DNA of 64,000 nucleotides. Source: Camelus dromedarius. Its lineage: Eukaryota. Where the stretch lies: NCBI RefSeq assembly GCF_036321535.1, contig NC_087436.1:4030001-4094000 (forward strand). Reading direction: 5' to 3'. A program made the position numbers and the translations under genes. Each line of letters opens with the position of its first letter. The stretch's first letter is position 1. Under the pieces are notes generated by a model, which had not been told where the DNA came from, searched no databases, and saw nothing but the letters and a program-made list of their open reading frames with translations. This document shows, one piece after another, positions 4,422 to 55,860 of the stretch.

Positions 4422-4945
4422 ATTTTTTTAAGAAATGGAGAATTAAAGCAAAATGATGGAGGAATACGGAATTTTTTTAGAGGACTCAACTCAGATTTAA
4501 GATGGGGAAAAAACATCCATTTCTCAGAGGAAATCTTGAGAACTATGTAAACTGGATCTGAGATGTCTAGTCTTTTAACATTATTCAAGAATTCATATTA
4601 CCAAGTCTTAAAACTACCTGATAACCCTCAATGGTGATAGTGATCATAACAGCTGCCAACACGGATCGAGCTCTGGCTAGGACTGCTCTGTTCTGACATC
4701 TCTGCCCCTGAGGCCTCACCAGGCTGAGAGCATTAAATTCGGTCATTCATGAGCATCACGTGTAAGTCCTACATTTGTGCTTCTCACTCCCCCCTTCCCC
4801 AGCCCCTCTGAGGGAAGCACTGTTATCATCTTCCCCACCCGCAGATAAGGCCAGTGAGGCACTGAGACTAAACCCGTTCCAGGTCACATCGGCATTAAAG
4901 GACGTCTGTATTTCTGCTGTTTTGCTTTTGACAAAGGAATCTGAG

Positions 4946-5370
4946 TGTCAGCCGAGGGAGGCTGATGTGGGGTTCTAGGAGGTGAGCGGCCCAAACGAAA
5001 AAATGCACGAGGAGTTGCCATACTGCTGGACAGACTTCAGCCGGAGAATCCATGGGGTTAACAACACTTTATTGCCACAGGGAGGTGCACCCTATGATGC
5101 ACCTGTCCTGCTTTTATCTGTTTTCTGTCAGCACATGCGCGGTCTGAGTTTCTTTGTTCATCAGGCTTACAGAATATCTCTAGCACATGCGTACTTCTAT
5201 TTTCTTTGTTCTAAATCTTATATAATTGACGCATGCGTGGAGCAATTATTTACTGCATACTACAAACATGCTCTGATCGTGGCCTTGGGTCCCACGGCTA
5301 TAACTCATCTCAATGCTCCGATCGTGGCCTTGGGTCCCACGGCCTTAACTCATCTCAACACCAGCTCACA
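4946..5370 (-). repeat. 3' LTR (425 bp) with two copies of a 45-bp U3 repeat (5270-5314, 5315-5359)
   Basis: Direct repeat of 10810-11189. Preceded on the minus strand by the PPT. AATAAA at 5073-5068. Confidence 0.97.
5068..5073 (-). terminator. LTR polyadenylation signal AATAAA (second copy at 10932-10937)
   Basis: tttatt on the plus strand in both LTRs, at the position expected for R. Confidence 0.8.
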
Positions 5371-5381
5371 TTCCACCCCCT
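5371..5381 (-). other. Polypurine tract AGGGGGTGGAA
   Basis: Purine-rich run abutting the TG start of the 3' LTR. It overlaps the env stop codon. Confidence 0.9.
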
Positions 5382-6534
5382 AGGTCGTGGGAACCCTAAC
5401 CCATAGAGCGGAGCATTGTGCCCAAAGGCCACAACAACAATATAGAGTACAGCATCCTACCAATACACAGACAGCAACAATAGCCAGGAGAGTTAGGCTC
5501 CATTTCCAGGAGGACGTCAAGGATGACCACCAATTCTTGAGGGGGTCTTGAGTTATATGATCTATGCGATCCAATTCCTGATCTATTTCATGCAGTGCCT
5601 TAGCTACTTCCTTCTGGTGATCTGGTATATAGATACAACATTCAATATGTAACATAGCACATGTGCCACCCTGGTTTGCAGTGAGAATATCTAATGCCAT
5701 TCTATTTTGTAAGACTACCTTTCGCATCTGGGTAGTCTTGTCTAACTATTCCTCTATAGCTCTTCTAGTAACATTCAGTACAGCTGATATGTGCTGAGCT
5801 AAAACTTCTACCTGAAATTCAACACTGATGGTCCCAGCACCAGGCAGGAACAGGGCCATGGGATAAAACCATCAAGCTGCACGCTTCCCCCGGTGCCACC
5901 GGGTGTGCAGTGGGTCCCAATTTGTGGGGTGCTCTGTCAAAGTGGGCCGGATATGTCCGGGCAAGTAAGCTCTACCCCCAAGTACAGTGCCCTGTCCATT
6001 TATCTGGGAGATAAGACCATCCGTGGATGCCATATACCCACAGATACCCTGGTGGCAGGAAATCAGTGGGTTTTGTGCCAATTAGAGGTCGTCCATCCCA
6101 CCAGGTGGAGGCATTTACATTATAAGTAATTTTGGCACACAGCTCTTCTGGGAGCCACCCCATTGTGTGGTTTGGAGCCTCGTGTTCAAACCGCTGCTCA
6201 ATACAGAGGGGGCTTAAGTTCCTCACTTTCACATGAACATTATTCATCCATCCCCACCCATTCCATACAGTCCTTCCAATTAGGGGGGGTATTGCTCCGC
6301 TCATGTCGGAGTATTTCTTCAATAGTGTTCCGCCGCAAGTCCCAGGGCGATCTCTCTGTCCTGTTGGCATTCCATCGAATCAAGGTGCTCCAATTAGCTC
6401 TGGACGCGGGGTGGAGGTGCCATGGCAGTCTATCTCCTGCGTCTACAGGAAGTTCAGTACAGACCCAACAGTGAGAGACGTTGTGGACTCAAGCGAAAGT
6501 GTGTGCCCAGGAGAACATGGTATTTGCTGTTACC
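5380..6534 (-). pseudogene. env: env (gamma-type SU/TM), disrupted
   Basis: Conceptual translation VTANTMFSWAHTFA*VHNVSHCWVCTELP... with furin site RGKR, fusion peptide WFYPMALFLPGAG, ISD LQNRMALDILTANQGGTC, CAMLHIECC (CX6CC) and TM helix SLTLLAIVAVCVLVG. Stops near 6490, 5873 and 5747; frameshifts at homopolymers near 6286 and 5976. Confidence 0.93.
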
Positions 6535-9500
6535 CTGGATGGAAGGACAGAGCAGAGGTGGACACTATGATTGGCAAATCTCTCCCTTCTGGGAGGATGC
6601 AAGCCATTTTCTCATCCTGTGAGAGTACAGTGGCAGGAAGGGCTGTTCGCCCTGGGCGGTGGTACCACATCAACCCGCCCACACTAGGTTGGTTACACTC
6701 TGGGAGAGCTTCAGGAGCTATCAGTGGAATTGCCCAAAGCTGTAGGGCTTCTGCTCCTTTAAGTAGGGACACTCCTGTTTTCCCTAGAATAACCTGCACA
6801 TCAAAAGGCCATTCCCCCACTCGTGGGGTTACCTGCAGGGCTTTCTCTAGCCCACTGCCCCATGGTTCCAAAAGGGCTAGCCAGGGGCCTTCAGTCTGGA
6901 CCTGATTCTTCCATGTCCAGGTGTCCTGTTTTCCTGAGTTCAACACCCTGGGGGCGCGTAATATTAACGCATGCCCCACTATTGAGACATCGGAGGCATC
7001 CTGCATAGGCCCAATTCTGAGCCTCCGAATAGTCCCTTGCAATAACTTTTCCAGTGGGCTCATACCTGTATGGCGAGGTTGTTCATTCAAAAGATGTACC
7101 GCCTGAGGCAAGACATTGTTCCAGCCTCGCCCTTGTGGTTTGAGAGCCCTCAGTTTGTCCTTTAATAGACCATTGTACCGTTCAATCATTCCTGCTGCTT
7201 GAGGACGGTAAGGCACATGCAATATCCAGTTAATATCATTTTCCTTGGCCCATTCCTGGGTCTGTTGGGCAGTGAAAGGGGTCCCTCTATCACTTTGTAT
7301 TTCTAAGGGAGTCCCATAGAAGGCCCGTAAAACTTCCAGTGCTCTAATAGTAGAGTCTTGTGTAGCTCGGGGCACATGGTGAGCAAAACTTAGGCCAGTA
7401 GCGGTGTCTACCGCTGTCAGCAGGTACCGCAAGCCCGTACTCAGAGCAAAGGGGCCTACGTAATCTATTTGCCATACCTGCAATGGCTGAATTCCCCGTT
7501 CAATCTTCCCCATCTGTTGGGGCCATCGCCGCCGGTGTGGGTGGTGCTTAGCACACCATGGACATTGCCGCACGGCATCTTTGGCTTCACTGTGGCTCAG
7601 GTGCAGGCCCCACCGGTCGGCTACCTGCCTCATTGTGTATGAGCCAACATGACCAAGTTTCTTATGGAGCCACGGACCTATATCGGGTCCTGGGACCATA
7701 GCTTGTACAGGACGGAGTTGGGCTAGCGCGTCAGCAGCATCATTGCCCGGTGCCAGGGCTGGGCGGTGCCCTGGTACATGGTAAACAGTATGGTGGCCTT
7801 CTTGGCCTTTGTCCCATAACTGTTTCCACATCTGTTGTCCCCACAGGGGCCGATGCCCAATCATCCAGTCTTGCAGGGCCCATTGGGGTATCCACAATGT
7901 AAGGCCTCGATATACGGCCCAACTATCTGTACATATATGCAAGGGGCTAGGTTCATTCATCAACACCAGCCATACTGCCCGTAACTCAGCCCATTGGCTG
8001 GATTGGCCTTCTCAGGTCTCATACCAGAAGGCTTCAGTGGCAGGGTGCAGTTCTACTGCAACCCAAGTGGGCGGACTGCCCTTACAAGATCCATCAGTAT
8101 ACCAAGCAGTTCCCGGGGGTGGCCCTTTCCCTTCACGAAAGGGACTGGGGACAGGGTCCACCCCTTGTTGTGGGAGGGTCTGTACATCAGGCGCAACAAA
8201 TCTCACAGGCCCTAAAAACTGCTGCAACCCTGCAGCCAAGGGGCTAGCGGTGTACTGGCTCTCTGTTCCAAATAAACACCCCACTTCGTCAGAGTTGGGG
8301 TTTGGGCAGTTCCTGATCGGGATTGCTTTGCCCATGTCTGTACCCATCCTGCAATAGGGTATGTGGTCTGCACTTGGACCTCTTGCCTCCCCGTCAGGGG
8401 TTCAGTGACAATCAAGGATGCATAAGTCGCTAGCAACTGTTTCTCAATCAGAGAATAATGACATTTAGCCCCTTTCCACAACTGAGACCAGAATCCTATG
8501 GGCACTTTCTACTGCCCATGTTTCTGCCATAAGCCCCAGCCATATCCATCACTGTCCACATGGACTGTCAAACAGAAAGGGATGTCTGGATCTATAGTGT
8601 GCAGTGCTTGCGCTTGGGCCACTGCCCTCTTAGTTTCAACAAATGCACATTCGGTCTCATCAGACCAGTTCCAGATTTCTCCCTTTTTAATCAGTTTATA
8701 CAGGGGTTTGGCTATTTGGGCCAAATGAGGAATAAACACCCGCCAGTATCCCAGAAGACCCAAATAAGTCTGTAACTGTTTAACTGTTTCAGGACGGGAA
8801 TATGCTTGGATTTTGTCTATTACTGCTTCAGGCAGCATTTTTGTCTTACCCGACCAGACAACACCCAAGAATTTGACAGAATATCCAGGTCCTTGCACTT
8901 TGTCCTCGTTCATGGCCCACCCCCAGCCCACCAGGGCTTCTCGCAGCGCTGTGGCACTGGTTTCCAAATCTGAAAGAGAATCAGAGGTTAGCATTATGTC
9001 ATCAATATAATGGAACAAGCGAACGGTATCCGGTTTGCTCCAGGTAGCCAGGTCCTGGGCCACCAGGCCATGACACAGTGTAGGGCTGTGCAGATATCCC
9101 TGCGGAAACACAACAAATGTCCATTGTCTGCCTTCCCAGGTGAAGGCAAACTGTTCTTGGCTCTCAGGGGCTATGTCTATCGAGAAGAATGCATTAGCCA
9201 GGTCAACCACATAGTGACAAGTACCCAGTTCATGGGACAGTCGGTCCATCAAATCTGTTATATTCGGCACAGCTGCATGCATGGGGGGAGTGACTTTATT
9301 CAGTTCCCGATAGTCCATTGTCATCCTCCAGGAGCCGTCTGGCTTCCGCACCGGCCATGCTGGAGAGTTATATGGGCTATGCGTAGCCCGAATTATACCG
9401 GCTTCCTCAAGCTTCAGAATAGTCTGTCCTATTTCCTCATGGCCTCCGGGCAATCGATATTGCCAGACATTCACCACTCTTGTGGCCCGTGGCAAAATCA

Positions 9501-9906
9501 AAGGTGCATGATGAGGATGCCCCCGTATAACTGTTTTCACCATATGGACTCTCAGGCGAAATTCCCCTTGAGTCGTCTGTATTTGCAATCCTTGCAAAAT
9601 GTCTATCCCCAAAATGTATTCAGCTACTGGGGATATATGCACTTCATATGCAGCAGGGGACAGACGGCCAATGCCCAAAATCAGAGTCACTCGTTTAACA
9701 CACATTTGCTTGTTTCCATATCCTTCTATATCAACCCATGGTCCCTGAAAACGCTCCGGATTTCCATGCACCAATGTAATTTCAGCTCCTGTGTCTACTA
9801 GTGCCAGCACTCGCTGTTTATTCATGGGGGACCAGTGAATAGTCAGCTAAACATGTGGCCTCCGGTCATCGGGGTGCCCCACATCCTGAACACCTTGGCC
9901 TTCCTC
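6530..9906 (-). pseudogene. pol: pro-pol (protease, RT, RNase H, integrase), disrupted; RNase H C-terminus plus integrase still open for 478 aa (6530-7966)
   Basis: [27 protein letters not shown]; RNase H WYTDGS/AEL/TDS; H-x4-H...CPWC; WQID, QSDRG, IERYNG. In-frame stops at 9847-9849, 8509-8511 and 8012-8014; frameshift near 8250. Confidence 0.95.
6535..6560 (-). promoter_or_regulatory. env splice acceptor CACCTCTGCTCTGTCCTTCCATCCAG|G
   Basis: Long pyrimidine tract plus CAG at the very end of pol, directly before the first env-homologous residues. Confidence 0.7.
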
Positions 9907-10780
9907 CTAGTCTGGGAGGAAATCAGCAAAGGCCACCTCTTGGGCCTGATGGGAGGTTGGCAATGGAGTATATTGTTGCTCAGGCCATAATTTCTTCCAT
10001 AAGGCCATCAGCACCTCCAATGGCTGGCCATCTAATTTTACATGGTCCAGGCCAGCTGCCAGTAAATCACACCATATCTGCCAGCGATCTAGCTTTTGGG
10101 GCCCTCCTAAAATTGGAGCATTCCCCTTTTTCCTCCTTGGTGTGGACTTCCCTTTCTGTGTCACTGCACAGGAGGAGGGGATCTTGGACTCACCTTGAGT
10201 CTTGGCAGCATGTACCCCCTTTCAGCGCACCTCTATGTCCCCCAGACGAGCCAGAGCCTCAGTTACTTCATGAATGGGGTGGTCTACATACGGTGCTAGT
10301 AGCGCCGCCATAGTCCCAAATGTTCCCGTTGGGCCATTAGCCAAAATCAAATCTTTTATTCGAGCTGTAAGGAGCTCATCATCTGGATGCTCCCAGGGGC
10401 AGTGGGACCGGAATTACATAGGCATAGCTGCTCTCAGAGGCGGCGGAGCTAGGACCATGCAGACATCTTTCTGCTGTGCTGGGTCTCTGCTTAAGCTCCT
10501 CTTGCATCTGTAAACCTCTCATGTCTTGGCTAGCATGCCGTAAAACAGAAAAGAACATCCAGGCCACCCTCCCGGCTGCCTCTTGGTGGGCTAATGGGAC
10601 ATTATTTTCTAACAGCTCCAACGCCCTCCGAACATCATCTGGCTGGGGCGCCACTGTGTCCCAAACCTCAGGTTGAGCCCACGTCAGCAAATAGGCTGCC
10701 ACCGGGTATCATATAGAGGTAGGGGGCCACTTTGCATCCACCAGAGCATCCCCGTCAGGGGCAGGGGGTTCAGAAGGGGC

Positions 10781-10789
10781 ACTCACCTC
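10781..10789 (-). promoter_or_regulatory. Major splice donor GAG|GTGAGT immediately after the PBS
   Basis: Near-consensus donor; the exon ends at 10787. Confidence 0.75.
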
Positions 10790-10917
10790 ATCCTGCCAAC
10801 TACGCCAAGTGTCAGCCGAGGGAGGCTGATGTGGGGTTCTAGGAGGTGAGCGGCCCAAACGAAAAAATGCACGAGGAGTTGCCATACTGCTGGACAGACT
10901 TCAGCCGGAGAATCCAT
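10783..10917 (-). CDS. LTR-encoded 44-aa leader ORF, putative Env signal-peptide exon: MDSPAEVCPAVWQLLVHFFVWAAHLLEPHISLPRLTLGVVGRMR*
   Basis: ATG at 10917, open through U5 and the PBS. Its TGA lies inside the donor AG|GTGAGT. Splicing 10787 to 6534 gives ATG AG|G GTA ACA, in frame with env. Confidence 0.6.
   Translation of the reverse strand: MDSPAEVCPAVWQLLVHFFVWAAHLLEPHISLPRLTLGVVGRMR
10790..10807 (-). other. Primer-binding site for tRNA-Ser, TGGCGTAGTTGGCAGGAT
   Basis: 17/18 match to the complement of the tRNA-Ser 3' end (ATCCTGCCGACTACGCCA). The mismatch is a G:U pair. It lies 2 nt after the LTR. Confidence 0.92.
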
Positions 10918-11189
10918 GGGGTTAACAACACTTTATTGCCACAGGGAGGTGCACCCTATGATGCACCTGTCCTGCTTTTATCTGTTTTCTGTCAGCACAT
11001 GCGCGGTCTGAGTTTCTTTGTTCATCAGGCTTACGGAATATCTCTAGCACATGCGTACTTCTATTTTCTTTGTTCTAAATCTTATATAATTGACGCATGC
11101 GTGGAGCAATTATTTACTGCATACTACAAACATGCTCTGATCGTGGCCTTGGGTCCCACGGCCTTAACTCATCTCAACACCAGCTCACA
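10810..11189 (-). repeat. 5' LTR (380 bp) with one copy of the 45-bp repeat
   Basis: By eye identical to the 3' LTR except A5171/G11035 and the 45-bp unit. Followed on the minus strand by CT and the PBS. Confidence 0.97.
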
Positions 11190-11734
11190 CTGAGATATCA
11201 ATTCAAGGGAGACTGTTAAATAATCAAGTCTGCCTGGTCTTCACCTCAAAGAGCAGATACTATAAATTCCTGATGTAGGATGAGGCTGCCGCCACAAACT
11301 GACTCAGCTTGAAATTAATATCCAAGATGAAGCAGCGGATACACGTAAATATTCATGATTGTCAACTCCGCTCATGGGTCTGGGCCCTTCACTGCCTGAA
11401 CGGGGGTGAAATCCCCACCCCTGTCAGGGATGGAAGCGCGGCTCTTCCCAGTGTCACCCAGGCTTCATGGGCTGTTTCCCCCCACAGGCTGTCCTCAATG
11501 ATTAAAAAGCTCTCAAGATTTTTACACCATGCAAAACTGAAAGACATTTCTGCAGATGGAGCACTTTCTCAGGCTTAAACCTTTTTTGCCTACACTCAGC
11601 AAGGGGGAAAAAAGAAACATGACTCTGCAAAGTCTCTGAGCCTCACCACTCACAGGAATAGAAAGGCCATAGCAGAAGATGACACTTCACATCGCAGGGT
11701 GAGAACAAAATAAAGCGGCCCCAACAACAGGCAC

Positions 11735-12280
11735 TCCCAGAGACAGCGCTCAGCAGTCTTCTGCACACTCACGGTTTTGCAGCCCTCATCACCATCTATT
11801 TCCAGAACACCATCACCCCAGAAGAACACCCCTGTCACTAAGAGTCACTCCCTAACACCCCTCCACCCAGCCCTTTGCAACCATCACCTGCTCTCCGCCT
11901 CTGCATGTGCCTATTCTGAGCATTTCAGATCACTGAAATCAACAATATGTGGCCGTCTGTGGTTCCTTTCACTTAACATGCTGTTATCAAGGCTCATCCA
12001 TGTTGAAGTGGTATCAGCATCTCTCTCTGTTTTTTTTTTTTTTTTTTTGAAAACGTTAAAGTTTATTAGAAGGTGGTAAGTACTATCAAAAAGAGTAGAG
12101 TGGAGCATAAGGGGTTGGGTTTCAAAGGGAAAAGGGCAGGTTGAGCAGTCAGGGTGGACTTCCCAGAACAGGTGGCCTTTTTCATCTTCCCCTTAATTTT
12201 TTTTTCTTTTTTATTCACTCTTACGTCTGAATAATGTTCCACTACATGGAGATACTACATTCTGTTCATCCATTCAGCAG
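11735..12280 (-). mobile_element. Old L1M 3' fragment interrupted by a poly(A)-tailed insert at about 12030-12205
   Basis: L1MB-like text (caccatctatttccagaac..., ctttcacttaacatg...tcatccatgttg, ttcatccattcagc) on both sides of the insert. Confidence 0.6.
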
Positions 12281-20544: not shown

Positions 20545-20810
20545 ATTTAAAAAGTAAACAAATAAATAAACAAACAAAAAACAAATACTAGAAACTGATT
20601 TAAGAACAGATCTTACTTATTCTACTGTATGTAAAATACTATCATTTTGACATGTAATCAATATAGAAAGTAACAAGGTAGATTACATTCCTTTTACTAG
20701 ATAAGTCTCAGTATCTGATGTGCATTTGTCCTACAGCACATCTCAGCTCAGACCAGCCTCCTCCCCAGCGCTTCTAGCATCAGTGGCTGTGGCTACTCTA
20801 TTGGACAGCA
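20545..20810. mobile_element. hAT-Charlie type MITE (MER3/MER33-like)
   Basis: acatgtaatcaatata...acagcacatctcag...gtggctactctattggacagca terminus. Confidence 0.6.
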
Positions 20811-21047
20811 ACTCCAGGTGTCCCACCAGGGGTCCTGGCTGAAAAGCTGGAGTAAGTGTCCACACTAACCCTAAAAGGATCTCTCTGAAACAAAGGCGGA
20901 TTCACTTTTGAATGTCTGTAAACCGGCGGGCTGCACCTCCCTCCACCCTTGGCTACAAGACAGCCCTCTTCCTTGCTGATCCCTTCCTGGATGTAGGGAA
21001 GCAATCCGGCACACAGCCAGGGTGGCCGGGCCTCCAGATAGACGTAC

Positions 21048-21616
21048 CTGCTGACTGTGTCCAGTCCCATGAAGTCCTCCTTCTCAAACAAGGTGCAGAG
21101 GAGGTGGATCTTGTCCCCAGACTTGTTGGGGGCCCTATCCAGCCACTTGGACTTGAGCATGATGAAGAGTGACTCAGTGAAGTCCTCGATCCTCTTCACC
21201 AGCCTGCAGTCCTCATAGATTGAAGGCCACGTCTGTGCGTGTCTGCTCGGCCACCTCCCCATGCAGCACAAAGACAAAGAGCTAAGAGTCATTATCGAGG
21301 TGCCATACAGCTCCTCTGCACGTGGAGCTTCTCGAAAGCCTTGGCCGAGAGGCAATCGGTAATGGTGACAAGGCCCACTACATTGCTGTGGGTCTGGAAG
21401 TTTCTCCACCCATTCTCGGGTGCATAGTGGTGCCTGTAGTGCATACAGAGTGCCCACTGGGAGCCGCACGGGCTGATCTGGCTCACCAAGGAAATTCGCT
21501 TATAGATGCAAAAGAAATTCTCCTCTGAGATGATCCCAACGGCTTGGATCACCACGGGGAGAATCTGGTCGTTCTCAGCGCACTGCACGTAGTCAGGGAT
21601 GCTCATGTTGCAGCCC
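21048..21616 (-). pseudogene. TRAPPC9: TRAPPC9 (NIBP) pseudogene, first coding exon (exon 2), frameshifted
   Basis: [13 protein letters not shown]...[12 protein letters not shown]...YRHHYAPEN...[10 protein letters not shown] in one frame, and YEDCRLVKRIEDFTESLFIMLKSKWLDRA...FEKEDFMGLDTVSR in another. ATG at 21606 is 10 nt after a ggcag acceptor; donor AG|gtacgt. Introns are present, so this is an unprocessed duplicate. Confidence 0.95.
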
Positions 21617-22048
21617 CTGCCGAGAGGGGAGAGGAGATTGAGATACATACTCTGCTGTGGGCTGTGGGCCCCTCTGGGTTGTGGTGACCTGGTGTGTACC
21701 AGCCAGAAGGCAAGGGGAGCCCAAGCAAAGCCGGGGGTACAGTTTGTCCTCAGTGTCTGCACATGGCTACCGTAGGTCGGATCACATTACCCAGCTTTTG
21801 GCCTAGGCTTCCTGCCCCTGCAGAGCAGGGTCATTTCTTGTTTTCTGTTCCAAGCACCTAGCCAAACCCTGATGCAAAGTCAGTGCTCAAAACTGCTGAA
21901 TAAAGAAATGAAAAAATGAACTGCTTTCCACACCCCTTTAAGCAGAATATAAAGAAAAGAACCACAGTGGGATCAAAACATCTGGATTTCTATCCAATTT
22001 ATTTGAACTCCTAAGCTGCAAAATAATGGATAAGATAACTTGTCTTGC

Positions 22049-27091: not shown

Positions 27092-27575
27092 TGTTACCGA
27101 GTCCAAATTCATTCTCCTCAGTGCAGGACAGGCCAATAGGTTCAGAGACTAGGTGTTGGGGCATGGAATAGCAAGTTTTTGTAGACCTTGATGGCAAACT
27201 AATGTCCTGGAAAACCATCTCCCCAAGTCAGAATTCAGGCTCCTTTCCTACGTGCTTGGTTGTAGTAAACTTCTTGGTGTAGGAATTCTTTTTTGTTAGA
27301 ATCCTTTGTTCTTGCAGCTATCTGCCTGGGTCATATCTCTGTAAACCTCCAACAAAACAAAAGTTATTTTCTATTCTGCAACTTGTTATCTTTATATGAA
27401 TGGAAAAGTGTTAAATATCCTTAAAAGTCAGAGCCTTCAGAATAGGCTCTCCTGTATATTTCAGGCTCTAGGCAACATTGTTTCACAAGAAACATGAAGC
27501 CTAGGAGACAGAGCACAGAGTTAAAGTCAAAGGAAAAGATCTAGTATGGAGTCAGATTTGTTCTTTTCTATTACC
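27092..27575 (-). mobile_element. Solo LTR (ERV1, MER41-like)
   Basis: tgttaccgag... to ...gagtcagatttgttcttttctattac; reverse-complement homologue of 28245-28763. Confidence 0.75.
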
Positions 27576-28244
27576 CGGGCAGAAGGCACTTGAAGATTTA
27601 AACCCCTTTAAGTTAAAAATAAGTAAAAGTTTAAAGGAATTTACATACATAGGTGGGAATGTGCATAACATATCTGGAAAAGCACACAAAGGATAGTAAA
27701 CAGTGGCATCTCCAGGGACGGCTGGAAGAACAGGGGATGAGGGAAAACTTCTTTCACTTGTGTATTTTTGTGCTCTGTTTGAGATTTTTTTAACCATATG
27801 CATGTATTTCTTTTTCAGTTAAAAAAAATTGTAATGGAACAAAGGAGTAACTAGCACAGCAAATACAGCAGCCATAGAATCACTGTGCCATCACTTTTAA
27901 TTTAAGCCAGGAAACATTTATTGACTCTCTCCTATGTGCCCAGTGCTGTTTTAAGACTTCTTTTATTATTTTTATTTTTATTTTTATTTTATAAAATAAT
28001 AACATGCTATCCCTCACCCCTGCCCAGGGCTGGTGGAAAACCAACTGAGTTTTTCTTGAGTTGTTTTCCAAGGAGTAGAGATGAGTTATAAACAGGACAC
28101 ATCTTCCGTGCAAAACAGTTGGAGTGGTTTTCCAGCAGACCAGACAGCTATGAAGGGTTTACAATAGAGGCGCCCAGAGGCTAAGAGAGAAAGCCTCCAG
28201 GACCCTACAACAAGCTGCCCAAAGTGCCTTCTCCATGGCACTAC

Positions 28245-28763
28245 TGAAATAGGAAAGAACAAATCTGACTCCATATTAGATCTGTTCTTTTGACTTTAAC
28301 CCTGTGCCCTGTTTCCTAGGTTTAGTCTTGTTGGTTCTGCACCTTTTGTAAAACAATGTTGCCTAGAGCCTGAAATATACAGGAGACCCTATTCTCAAGG
28401 CTCTGACTTTAAAGGATATTAACACTTTTCCATTCATATAAAGATAACAAGTTACAGAATAGAAAATAACATTTGTTTGTTGGAGGTTTACACGGATCTG
28501 ACCCAGGCGAAGAGCTGCAAGAACAAAATATTCTAACAACAAAGAATTCATAAACCAAGTTTGCAACAACCAAGCATTCCTGCTTCCCCTTTTTAATATA
28601 AAAAGAGCCTGAATTCTGACTTTGGGAGATGGTTTTCCAGGACATTAGACTTCCATCTTCTTATCTGGCTTTCCAAATTAAAGTCGCTATTTCTTGCCCC
28701 AAAATGGTCTCCAGATTTATTGGCCTGTAATGCACAAGCAGAACAAGCCTGGACTTGGAAACA
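28245..28763 (+). mobile_element. Solo LTR (ERV1, MER41-like), same family as 27092-27575
   Basis: TGAAATAGG...GGAAACA ends, with TATAAAA near 28598 and ATTAAA near 28677. Confidence 0.75.
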
Positions 28764-40212: not shown

Positions 40213-42019
40213 CTATAAAGAAAACCAAAATAAAAGATCGCTCACACTCTAGCTCGGTGACCTGAAGAATCATAGTTTTTGCCATCTACTGAGTGCAAGT
40301 CCCTGCACAGAGCATGCTGACAAGCACTGGAAATAAGAGACATCACTTCTGAACACATACAATTAAACCCAAGGTCTCAAGTGAGGGACCTTGGACCATC
40401 CTGAAAAGACATCGTTCCCTGAGAATCCTCAGTATTGCTGAATCACACACCAGTGTTTCTCATTGGGACACTCAGATCATCTTCATCAGAATTAGTTAAA
40501 GTGCTTCTTAAAATGCAGGATTCTGGGGTGCAGACCCTCAGGGTCTCCAGAGGTAGGGACCTGTAGTCTGTATTTTTAGAGCAGCCGAGATCACTGAACA
40601 CGCCCAGGTTTAGCACCGCGGTCTACATCGTGTCACCTGAGCATCGACAATGCTGTCTCACGGGGTAGGCGGGTTGCCATGTGTGTCAGGGTGCTGTCCT
40701 ACCCACGAGACTCCCCTGATTCTCAGAACTGACAGTGCTGCCCCATTGGGCAAAAAATACCACCATTTCACAATGCATACGCAGGGCGCCCGACTGACAG
40801 ATACAATCAGTGATGGGAGAGGGGACAAAACTCATGTTCCTGATCCCTTGTTTCAATTACTGTGGGATGAATGATCAATTCAAGGGTAATAAATCAGTGT
40901 ATGAGTGAATAACATGACTCTCGTTAGTCCCACGAGTGCCTGGAAGAGCGAGCCTGGGCACACTGAGAATCATAACAGCCCATCTACTTAATTGTCATCC
41001 TCCCCAGATTTATGTAAAGGTTACTTCCACCCAGGCAGTGACCCCTGAAGGGCAAGAATCATGTCTGAACACACTCTCAAATACAGAACAGAACCTGACA
41101 ACAATTAGGCTCTGGGGTCTGTGTTTAGCGAGTGTGGAATCTCAGTGATTCCAGCTCTTAGACCTTGCCTTCCCATCCCACCCCTCACGATATGGCCCTT
41201 ATGACCAGCTCTCCCGGGGCTGGGGCCATGGAACCCATTTACAGGACTGGAAGAATCTGATCATGTAAACCATCCCCCAGAATATCATCAAGAGTCACCT
41301 GCATTTCAGGGATCAGTAATCCCAGAAGCTTTGCAGTTCAGGCAGCTGAGGGATTTTTATATCAGCTCTGTCTTCTACTGTGACTGCCTGGGTGACTTCA
41401 GACAAGGAATTCTCAAAAGCCTGAGCTTTTCCTTTCAGGAATAATCTAATTAACAAATCTCATTGACCACTCAACAAATGTGATGTGAAGATCAATGATT
41501 TACACAGGAGTACAACATTCACTAGGTCGTGGATTTAGAATCAGAGAAAAATCATTTGAGAAAGATTGACAGAATGTAGCTTTAATGCAAATTTAAGTAT
41601 TCTTACCTTTTGGTAAATCATCTTCCCCTACTTATCACTTCACCCAAGTTCAAAATATATTTGAGAACAGGGATGAGTGTGCCAGCAATCTGGGACCCAA
41701 TAACTTAAAATGTCACCTAGGAAAAAGAGGGGAGTAACACATTTTTAAAAAGCATGGTGAGGATGGCGGGGCCATCCCCCAACTCCAGACTAAGAATCTC
41801 TGAGTAATAGCTTTCCTGCCTGCCTGGGGCATCAGTTGATGTGAAAACCCACCCAGAAACCTCACTGTCCAGCAGCTCTTCCGTAACACAGGCTACACTT
41901 TCTCAGAATTAAGAATTGGGGCCAGTAACCACTTCGCTGAAGAATAAACACAAAGGAGAACAAGAGAGTTCTGCCCCTTCCCAGGGGAGAGCCCAGACCT
42001 TGGGCTGCATGCACTGCCA

Positions 42020-44112
42020 CCACCTCCCAGGAGAAGAATAAACTGGAGAAGGGCGTTCTGCGAAACTGGGGCAGCAAAGGTTGAGATGAGAACAAATTGA
42101 CCAGCTGGCCAGGGACAGCACCCTTCGTCGCTGCCTTGGCAGCTGCCTCCGCCCCCTCAGCACATCCTGCCCACCTCCGGTGGCTAAGCTGTCAGGGAAA
42201 CTGTGCTTTGCGACCTGGGGCAAAAGAGGCTGCCCCCAGGCCAAGCTGCGGAAGAGATGGGAGCTAAACCACCAGCTCCCAAGCGGCAGGCTCCATACCC
42301 CCGCCAACACCCCGCCGCCACCGCACCCTACGGCAACCCCGGGGCAATATGACCCGGAGAAGCGTGACCTGGGAATGAGGGGCGGCCACGTCAGGCCTCC
42401 AGAGAGATGGGAGCTTATCCTCCAGCTCGCCAGGGGCAGCCCCCCTCTCCTCTCCACCACCTGATCTCACCGCGCCCACCTCCCAGGAGCAACCTGACCG
42501 GGTGTGGGGTGTCAGGCGAATCTTGCGCGGGAGAGGCCATCCCCAGGCCAGGTCAGGGGAGAGGAGAAGAAGTGGCCCCATTAGGACGGGCAGCCGGCCG
42601 TCTCAGCTGCCTCTGCCCCTCGACGGGATCGCGCCCGCCTCCCAGGAGCAAGCTGATCTGGAGACGGGCATCCAGCTTCTTGGGCAGCAGAGGACGCCCC
42701 CAGGATTGGCAGCGGGGAAGAGGAGAGCAAATTGACAGGCTCCGCGCTGAGGTCTTCTACCTCCGCCGTTGCCACCCCCGCACCTTAAAGGCACCGCCCA
42801 GGGCGCCCCTCCCCCTGCAGGCTGAATGGGACAGGCGTGTCTGGTGATCTGGGGCAGGAGAGGCCACTCCCACACCAGGCCATCGGGGAGGCGGGAGCCA
42901 ATCCACCAGCTCCCCAAGGCAGCCCCCTACCCCCGCAGCAGCCACCACTCTTGCCCCCTGACCTCACGGTGGCCTCCTCTAGGGAGCAGGCTGACCTGGA
43001 GATGGACGTCCGGTGAACTTGGGACAACAGGGACCGCCCCCAGGGCAAACCATGGGGGGAAATGGGAGCAAATGGACCGGCTCCATGGGAAAACCTGCCG
43101 CTGCTGCCACCACCCCCAACGTACCATGCCCGCCTCCTGGGGTCAGGCCGACTAGGATACACGTGTTCCGTAACCCAGGGCAACAGAGACCGCCCCCAGG
43201 ACAAGCCGCGGGGAAGATGGGAGCAAATGTGCCCGCTCCCCCGCTGCAGGCCCCCGACCCCCGCCGCCCGTGCACCCTGACTACCCTGCCTCCTGCCCCC
43301 AGCAGGCAAAGTGGGACAGGGGTGTCCGGGGACCTGGCGCAGCAGAGGCCGCCTGCAGGCCACGCGGCACAGACATGGGAGCTAATTCACAAGCTCCCAA
43401 GGGGCAGCCTCCCTATCCCCGCAGCCACCACCTTACCAGCCCCCTGACTGCACCGCACCCATCTCCCAGGAGCAAGCTCACCTGGAGTCCAACATCTGGC
43501 GAATCTCCGGCGGCCAAGGTCGCCCCCAGGCCAGGCCGCGGGGGAGAGAAGAAATGGAGTAACTCCTTGGAACGGACCCCCTCACCCTGCAGCCGCCGCC
43601 GCCGCCTCTCAGGAGCAAGCTCACTTGGAGACTGGCGTCCCGCCTCTAAGGCAGCAGAAGCCGCCCCTGGCTCCGCCGCGGGGGAGAGCGGAGCGAATTG
43701 ACCGGCTTCCGCGCGGCAGCCCCCCTACCCCCGTGGGCCCCGCACATTAATGGCACCGTCCCCACTCCCCACTCAGCAAGCTGAGTGGGACAGGCGTGTC
43801 CGGCGACCTGGGGCAGCAGAGGCCGCTCCCAGGCCCGGCAGCCGGGAGAAGGCAGCTATTCCACCAGTTCACCAGGGGCAGCCCCGCTCCGCCCCCCTGC
43901 CGCTGCCGCCGCCCTCTGACCTAACTACCCCACCTCCCAGGAGCAAGCTTACCTGGAGTCCAACATCTGGCGAATCTCCGGCGGCCAAGGTCACCCTAGG
44001 CCAGGCTGCAGGGAAGAGAAGAAATCGACCGGCTTGCCCGGGCAGCCTCCCACACGCCGCCGCCTCCGCCGCTCCAAACCATTGCACTAGCCTCCCGGGG
44101 TCAGGCTGACTG
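42020..44112. repeat. CpG-rich degenerate tandem array, about 13-14 units of ~160 bp
   Basis: A CCTCCCAGGAGCAAGCTGA-like anchor recurs near 42022, 42173, 42335, 42478, 42637, 42808, 42973, 43132, 43295, 43461, 43605, 43770, 43932 and 44090. Confidence 0.85.
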
Positions 44113-44149
44113 AGAGGATGTGCACTTGCCTTCTAATCCTGGCCACGTG

Positions 44150-44340
44150 CCTGAGCACCTCCCTGCATCCCTACACTCCCTGCACCTCTGCACCCCTGCC
44201 ACTATCTGCACTTCTGCACTGCCTGCACTTCTGCACCCCTGCACCCCCGCATCCCCTGAACTGCCTGCGCCCCCCACAGCCCCTGCACCCCTGTCACCAG
44301 TTACACTTTTGCACTGCCTACACGCCTGCACCCCTGCATG
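44150..44340. repeat. Degenerate (CTGCACCCC)n 8-9-bp minisatellite
   Basis: Repeated ctgcacccc/ctgcactt units directly after the 160-bp array. Confidence 0.8.
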
Positions 44341-49220: not shown

Positions 49221-49328
49221 TTTTTTTGTGGGAGGTAATTTATTTATTTTAATGAAGGTGCTGGGGATTGAACCCAGGATCTCTTGCATGCTAAGCATGC
49301 GCCCTACCACTGAACTACACCCACCCCC
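49221..49328 (-). mobile_element. tRNA-derived SINE (camelid Vic-1-like)
   Basis: Reverse complement of the same SINE (ggggattgaacccagg...ctaagcatgcgccctaccactgaactac). Confidence 0.8.
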
Positions 49329-55300: not shown

Positions 55301-55324
55301 TGGAGACCACAGGTCTTCTGAGAA

Positions 55325-55860
55325 GCCAGTTTCGAAATAAAGGCAGTATGCGCTGGAATACCCATTTCGAGCAATTGCTTCATCCTAGACATGTAATTTA
55401 CATAGTTCTTCTCACCACGAAACTCTGTGTTCCCAACACGCTACATGAATGACGGCTTCAACACACATTCATTTCTGAGATGTGAACAAGTGGAGAGCCG
55501 CTCTTTCATCCAGCATAATGGGCATGGTCACACCTAGGAACGCTTACCAAGATTTCTCAGCAACAGCCAATTTCGAAATAAATGCAGTGTGCGCAGGAAA
55601 AGCCGGTTGGAGTGAGGGCTTCCCCATACACATGTAAGTTATATAGTTCCCCTCACCATGAAACGCTGTTCCCAACATGCTACATGCATGAAGGCTTCAA
55701 CACACATTCAGTTTTAAGAAGTTAGCATGTGGAGAGCCGCTCTTTCATTCAGCATAAACAGCATGGTTACACCCAGGAAGATTTACTCAGATGTCTCAGC
55801 TGGTTCCTTCACCCAGATTCAAAATAAAGGCATTTTGTGCTGGGAAAGCCTGTTGGAGAG
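55325..55860. repeat. Satellite-like tandem repeat, about 2.2 copies of a ~241-bp unit
   Basis: gccagtttcgaaataaa at 55325, gccaatttcgaaataaa at 55566 and cccagattcaaaataaa at 55812. Units share ggcttcaacacacattca and gtggagagccgctctttcat. Confidence 0.85.

Follow-up and report, generated by a model that had tools for sequence, protein, structure and literature searches.

An old, broken ERV-S-like provirus between closely matching long terminal repeats in the dromedary genome

We analyzed a 64,000-nucleotide (nt) stretch of the Camelus dromedarius genome (the window; assembly GCF_036321535.1, contig NC_087436.1, positions 4,030,001 to 4,094,000 of the forward strand; coordinates below count from its first letter). 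It carries a class III, ERV-S-like endogenous retrovirus (ERV) of 6,244 bp on the minus strand at 4946-11189, with a layout of long terminal repeat (LTR), primer binding site (PBS), gag, pro-pol, env, polypurine tract (PPT), and LTR. We found that the decay of the interior is much older than the last identity of the two LTRs, because about 24 LTR differences are expected from that decay and 2 are observed. Our leading reading, to which we give an even chance, is that a defective RNA was copied in trans, so that the provirus is a young integration of an old, dead template.

Interior decay and the LTR pair

The 5' LTR (10810-11189, 380 nt, with TATA-like and AATAAA motifs) and the 3' LTR (4946-5370, 425 nt) differ by one substitution in 380 aligned columns, located at a CpG (5171/11035). 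A previous sequence-only reading of this DNA had counted this substitution correctly but made no mention of an indel. The 3' LTR contains two tandem copies of a 45-nt U3 unit (5268-5357), which differ from each other at 3 of 45 positions; the 5' LTR contains a single copy. This one copy combines sequence from both 3' units, and the comparison therefore favors loss from a two-unit 5' LTR rather than a later doubling (P = 0.005-0.035).

Mapping against relatives revealed 12 breaks in gag, pol, and env: 8 are stop codons, and the reading frame is lost at the other 4. A further stop, between gag and pol, is ambiguous. Stops interrupt pol at 9849, 8511, and 8014, with a frameshift near 8256, and env at 6491, 5874, and 5748, with frameshifts near 6282 and 5975. 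These pol and env counts are exactly those of the sequence-only reading, and its figure of about a dozen disabling lesions holds. For gag it had reported at least three stops and one frameshift. Compared with the 493-residue alpaca model P0176, gag has two stops (10711 and 10224) and a frame change near 10400-10387; the third stop is probably the ambiguous one, and the loss of about 170-176 codons (0.5 kb) that accompanies the frame change had been missed. Gag also lacks 8 codons, in frame, near 10500. The ambiguous stop, at 9909 in the gag/pol junction, may be the natural end of gag or a thirteenth break, since relative P0054 ends at the same codon and both camel models that span the junction read on. 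With all three genes broken, the provirus has no gene able to support replication in cis.

A separate observation concerns positions 9907-9909, where the dromedary and wild-camel models read through and the window copy and P0054 stop. Some copies of the family may therefore carry a fused gag-pol frame.

How much decay do these breaks imply? About 5% of random substitutions create stops in the gag, pol, and env frames, and 8 stops in 5,160 coding sites correspond to approximately 2.8-3.3% decay (95% range 1.2-6.6%). At this level, the probability of two or fewer LTR differences is about 1e-8; it is 0.001-0.002 at the lower decay bound and about 0.01 there if only 7 stops are counted. The interior is thus older than the LTR match. 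The stop-codon clock places the interior at about 11 Myr (million years) with the primate clock quoted in PMC8922424. The LTR pair dates to 0.26 Myr at the camel rate of PMC8605555 and to 0.6-1.2 Myr at two slower assumed rates, with upper 95% bounds of 1.5-6.7 Myr.

We also considered whether the intact PBS, PPT, LTR ends, and splice signals could be taken as evidence of selection. We rejected this argument, as 45-60 signal bases at 2-3% decay escape all mutations with P = 0.17-0.41.

Structure and relatives of the provirus

The provirus ends in TGT...ACA and is bounded by a perfect 5-bp target site duplication (TSD), whose plus-strand copies at 4941-4945 and 11190-11194 are identical and which is present in single copy in contigs with an empty site. 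All internal features are on the minus strand. A splice-donor-like site that would be the major donor (10780-10789, first intron base 10786) directly follows the PBS (10790-10807), which begins with TGG 2 nt past the LTR. This PBS is presumably of the tRNA-Ser type; a search for a reference listing found none. The gag remnant (9907-10789) was delimited by alignment to P0176 and dromedary model P0053. Pro-pol (6530-9906) encodes the DTG and YIDD motifs, RNase H, and integrase. The env body (5380-6534) follows a splice-acceptor-like site (6535-6552, a pyrimidine tract plus CAG, with last intron base 6535) and encodes a surface subunit with CWVC, a furin-like site, and a transmembrane subunit (TM) with ISD and CX6CC (Pfam TLV_coat, E 1e-12). 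The PPT (5371-5381) adjoins the 3' LTR. Pfam matched protease, reverse transcriptase (RT), RNase H, integrase, and the TLV_coat TM. No dUTPase family was matched among the 11 open stretches of the provirus, and the nearest pol matches (P0001, P0002, and P0020) also lack one. As a side observation, alpaca model P0176 translates differently across the PBS (10790-10807); if our presumed tRNA reading is right, the family may use two tRNA-Ser isoacceptors.

Close relatives occur among the gene models from Camelus ferus, C. dromedarius, and Vicugna pacos, to which the protease-RT region is 94-96% identical. A 27-row tree, which included no named ERV-S or HERV-S reference, places the camelid copies beside a mole and a galliform element (100/100). 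Dromedary model P0032 and the window copy cluster together (99/97), on a stem that carries shared protein changes at 5 of 213 columns; the two differ at 12 of 304 residues. This clade and stem indicate that an already drifting template was copied once in the lineage of the window copy and P0032, by whichever route. A single column of the 213 unites the window copy with alpaca against both camels. None of 8 window open reading frame (ORF) products was present in the protein collection by exact look-up. A search for related loci gave 38 pattern matches in metagenome contigs, 0 of them confirmed, and none in viral contigs; one LTR-motif match (L001) was judged to be chance.

Env is 46-49% identical to the Env models of sloth (P0047) and bat (P0048) and has the class I-type features CXXC, CX6CC, and ISD. 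Where is its N-terminus encoded? An alternative frame within RT (8935-8850, minus strand) aligns with the N-termini of three of four bat and sloth Env models (P0048, P0178, and P0047) with scores of 65-82; other frames and the fourth Env model score 17-23. The matched N-termini, bat P0048 and P0178 and sloth P0047, look signal-peptide-like. The stretch ends at a donor-like site (first intron base 8849) that is in phase with the acceptor at 6535, and 8849-8935 is therefore a probable env leader exon that would be joined to the env body by splicing. These alignments suggest that an env leader exon nested out of frame in RT is conserved across mammalian ERV-S-like elements. A literature search found no description of such an exon. 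Separately, the sloth P0047 model (426 residues) and the horseshoe bat P0048 cluster (418-483 residues) are open, full-length ERV-S-type env models and possible host-captured env genes.

Origin of the mismatch

How did an old interior come to lie between matching LTRs? If a defective RNA was copied in trans, an ERV-S-like provirus would first have spent several million years decaying in the camelid germ line; the decay itself is observed, as 12 breaks and an ageing-type spectrum of changes. The decayed provirus would have kept a working LTR, PBS, and PPT, and presumably its packaging signals, and would still have been transcribed. Its RNA would have been packaged, reverse-transcribed, and integrated by the Gag and Pol of another class III element or of several partly broken ones. 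Reverse transcription would have rebuilt both LTRs from one RNA. About 0.3-1.2 Myr ago, the product would have entered one unit of a high-copy host repeat, with integrase generating the 5-bp TSD. Slippage between direct repeats, either as reverse transcription proceeded or later, could account for the 45 nt missing from the 5' LTR alone, and reverse transcription may have switched from one co-packaged RNA to another near the RT region. Copying in trans thus explains the TSD, the matching LTRs, the one-sided 45-nt loss, and possible mosaicism, at which an uneven distribution of private letters hints, in one replication cycle, and we therefore favor it. The sequence-only reading had drawn the same inference, which is partly supported: the interior did decay long before the LTRs were last identical, and reverse transcription in trans is a possible source of the LTR match.

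Sequencing runs provided further copies for comparison. We listed 24 runs by their share of sampled words (best 0.63 for X15, from organism B, and 0.56 for organism A) and compared four of them over 5371-11750, namely three of organism A, a close camelid, and X15; runs with less than 0.05 of the words (X21-X24) were ignored. The rows listed from this comparison cover 40 of 1,129 substitutions and 12 of 34 indels, ranked on an unspecified basis. Copy numbers were taken from depth ratios, which are rough, as summed contig depth is not true copy number. By this measure the right flank occurs about 450-650 times in organism A, compared with about 265-386 LTRs and 23-37 family interiors. The flank at 11195-11750, part of a many-copy repeat, has 16-22 times the depth of the proviral interior in all three organism A runs. 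The 3' part of the window copy is absent from these three runs, in which all depth reads another letter at many 3' sites; this absence suits a young integration. At stop 6491, another letter accounts for 100%, 40%, and 67% of the depth in the three runs, so this stop may be partly shared or recurrent. Three listed frameshifts show the other form in 0-55% of organism A depth, the remainder being assignable to neither, and the six of 12 breaks that lie outside the listed rows may be shared. P0053 ends at the codon of stop 10224, where the alpaca model reads on; judging from these models, recurrence at a hot spot would be as likely as descent.

X15 is much closer to the window. Its five listed pieces have 3 differences in 2,692 letters (99.9% alike) and no gaps. 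Pieces and rows together carry at least 7 of the 12 breaks, namely three frameshifts, the stops at 5748, 6491, and 9849, and one or both of the stops at 8014 and 8511. X15 and the window disagree at 6355 and 6492, and the run also contains family copies without some of the breaks; its low gag cover and its depth values were not used. These pieces reveal a near-identical defective copy that split off about as recently as the LTR pair.

Private letters of the window copy are unevenly spread. Among the listed rows, 33 fall in 5371-8806 (3,436 nt, 0.96%) and 1 in 8807-10809 (2,003 nt, 0.05%), and the density in the flank is 1.07%. None of 100,000 uniform simulations matched this roughly 20-fold change near 8800. 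The drop in the 5' part hints at a recombinant or at a sister copy without its 3' part. We rejected the 0 listed rows in 380 LTR nt as a sign of a younger LTR, as a site with 100% of another letter is seldom expected among about 300 LTR copies. A side observation at 11177 is that 7-9 contigs of X1 and X18 depart from the LTR 12 bases short of its outer end and continue into a different sequence that they share, which suggests a second LTR subtype in organism A.

Many results count against copying in trans, beginning with the small and unexplained selection of rows just described. The sequence-only reading had predicted a non-autonomous subfamily and a recently active autonomous ERV-S, and neither was seen. 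Another letter is read by 95-100% of the depth at stop 9849 and by 71-100% at stop 5748 in all three organism A runs. All three camelid pol models read through 9849, the camelid models all read through 10711, and both gag models retain the deleted gag segment. No sibling at another TSD was found in the four runs. A large subfamily sharing these breaks is not evident, and the data suggest a rare or single event. No long open camelid pol was present among 27 long matches (best 62-68% identity), none of which is a close camelid relative, although this is weak evidence; of two near-length matches in the helper search, one is a partial camel model, and the camelid models contain only partial open frames. 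The family itself appears to be old, because its camelid models, which occur in both Camelus and Vicugna, are 4-8% apart in protein. The copy in X15 has no link to the flank and could equally be an allele of the window locus or a sibling insertion. Empty sites occur in all four runs, which is weak evidence for a young integration since the flank has hundreds of paralogues; for the same reason, we rejected the empty site as proof of polymorphism. The insertion site lies in a repeat of about 450-650 copies, which the sequence-only reading did not know and which strengthens the case for gene conversion. Finally, the flank and the 3' interior are equal in private-letter density and both are missing from organism A, a hint that one old unit was lost whole in a single event.

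These last two points suit an old integration followed by LTR homogenization, in which the provirus would have entered the repeat unit 4-14 Myr ago, decayed in place, and then had one LTR overwritten by gene conversion, either within the element or between copies of the duplicated unit. Amplicon turnover would explain why the unit was lost from, or never spread in, organism A. This account needs no unseen helper, and neither a helper nor a sibling was found. Conversion tracts between LTRs are reported in 1,765-1,908 of 4,473-6,877 camelid LTR elements per genome (PMC8605555), and gene conversion between LTRs is also reported in humans (PMC6598467). P0032, at 12 differences in 304 residues, could be the orthologue. 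However, the tract must cover the whole LTR, and homogenization alone leaves the drop in private letters over 8807-10809 unexplained. Moreover, with P0032 as the orthologue and organism A as the species it comes from, the organism A runs should contain the letters of the flank and 3' part, yet they do not. We consider homogenization a serious possibility, if on balance an unlikely one. The shift in private letters near 8800 would instead suit a patchwork made at the level of DNA or cDNA, in which an old, decayed copy donated part of the interior of a young provirus with matching LTRs through ectopic conversion or a double crossover, or a cDNA overwrote an old locus; the one column in 213 that groups the window with alpaca against both camels points the same way. 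We strongly doubt this account, as the boundary has breaks to either side of it (gag and 9849; RNase H and env), so that nearly the whole interior must be replaced, and a sister copy without its 3' part yields the same private-letter pattern among the listed rows.

Could a young provirus have been broken in one step? One round of APOBEC3 hypermutation or an assembly error would each yield many stops between matching LTRs. Among 34 listed interior differences (sense strand), we counted 10 C>T, 7 G>A, 7 reverse transitions, and 10 transversions. The next base after the G>A changes is T in 3 cases, G in 3, and A in 1. This mixed spectrum points to slow germ-line ageing and not to one APOBEC round; APOBEC also does not produce a 0.5-kb deletion or four frame breaks. 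Assembly error is excluded for at least 7 of the 12 breaks, which recur in X15 contigs, and the LTRs were not collapsed, since an indel separates them. The recurrence in X15 and the mutation spectrum largely refute both origins, and we regard them as very improbable.

Returning to copying in trans, a broader scenario can be drawn, which we hold tentatively and think unlikely to be right. An env-bearing class III (ERV-S) lineage, of a kind commonly regarded in mammals as an ancient relic, would in roughly the past million years still have been a source of Gag and Pol in the camelid germ line, re-copying heavily decayed, partly recombinant relatives into amplified heterochromatic repeats where insertions still segregate. 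Its Env leader would come from an out-of-frame RT exon shared with the intact bat and sloth env models.

Comparison with known systems

The window copy resembles ERV-S and HERV-S in its class III pol with YIDD, its TGT...ACA ends, the presence of env, and the lack of a dUTPase match (features in PMC8278194 and PMC5210030). The comparison is by described features, and the nearest pol relatives retrieved are mole and galliform elements. A Ser primer is described for the family (PMC8278194, PMC5210030), and the PBS of the window copy is presumably of the Ser type as well. ERV-S copies of the human lineage are generally degenerate, whereas the LTR pair in the window looks under about 1-2 Myr old. 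XtERV-S of Xenopus tropicalis shares the class III gag-pol, a class I-like TM, and a single gag-pol frame interrupted at the junction by a stop, which is described as read-through (PMC8278194). It also has a Ser PBS (PMC8278194), as in our presumed reading of the window PBS. However, XtERV-S is intact, 8.0 kb long, and carries a dUTPase-like region and 705-bp LTRs, and its env begins at the end of pol (PMC8278194). The window copy is dead and 6.2 kb long, and its env leader seemingly comes from an exon nested in RT.

Defective ERVs mobilized in trans are known in cattle, mice, and koala (PMC10924933) and in dogs (PMC6407205). Bovine ERVK[2-1-LTR] D-type elements have no full open gene, are trans-mobilized, and carry a swapped old central segment; unlike the window copy, they belong to class II, make up 85% of their clade, and were demonstrated through de novo insertions and known competent copies (PMC10924933). 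The canid CfERV-Fc1(a) group likewise includes defective proviruses whose LTRs are near-identical, for which complementation and template switching are the explanation given (PMC6407205). Of 19 such proviruses, 12 have stops or indels in common with copies at other loci (PMC6407205), whereas the window copy has far more breaks per copy and no sibling at another TSD was found for it in the four runs. Dead or old members also re-enter replication through a working relative in ETn/MusD, IAP I-delta-1, and recKoRV (named in PMC10924933) and in the old-young Onsen recombinants of Arabidopsis (PMC5668417), but these concern other classes or hosts and are high-copy non-autonomous lineages or observed bursts. 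Set beside trans-mobilized non-autonomous ERVs as a group, the window copy shows nothing that speaks against membership and nothing that decides for it. It lacks a cis-capable gene, and its integration hallmarks are younger than its decay.

Why does the origin of this copy matter? If copying in trans is correct, ERV-S-like activity in a placental mammal would be dated to the recent past, and class III would be added to the known cases of a dead ERV paired with a working one. Should conversion be correct, LTR dating inside camelid amplicons can be off about tenfold. The mechanism is known either way; the novelty lies in the host and family and in how large the mismatch is. We found no description of a camelid ERV-S family in the open literature, a search that left subscription papers, Repbase/Dfam, and the supplements of PMC8605555 and PMC10435555 outside its scope; the main text of PMC10435555 makes no mention of camel, alpaca, or class III.

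Other features of the window

Several repeats lie elsewhere in the window. A tRNA-like short interspersed element (SINE) head at 4340-4412 matches the Rfam tRNA family at 29.8 bits, as the only one of six Rfam matches to pass the threshold, and has an inverted relative near 49242-49297. Two overlapping ORFs at 20798-21786 (minus strand) may represent a decayed, frameshifted TRAPPC9 exon; searches gave no match in support of this reading. Camelids are reported to have repeat-rich, duplication-prone domains (PMC13751797). An inverted repeat at 27190-28657 has arms of about 470 nt, 87-95% complementary in pieces, and a 675-nt spacer. The stretch at 42000-44300 is a decayed GC-rich tandem array of approximately 160-nt units with higher-order spacing near 470-490 nt, and 55324-55800 contains two copies of a 239-nt tandem repeat that are 80% alike.

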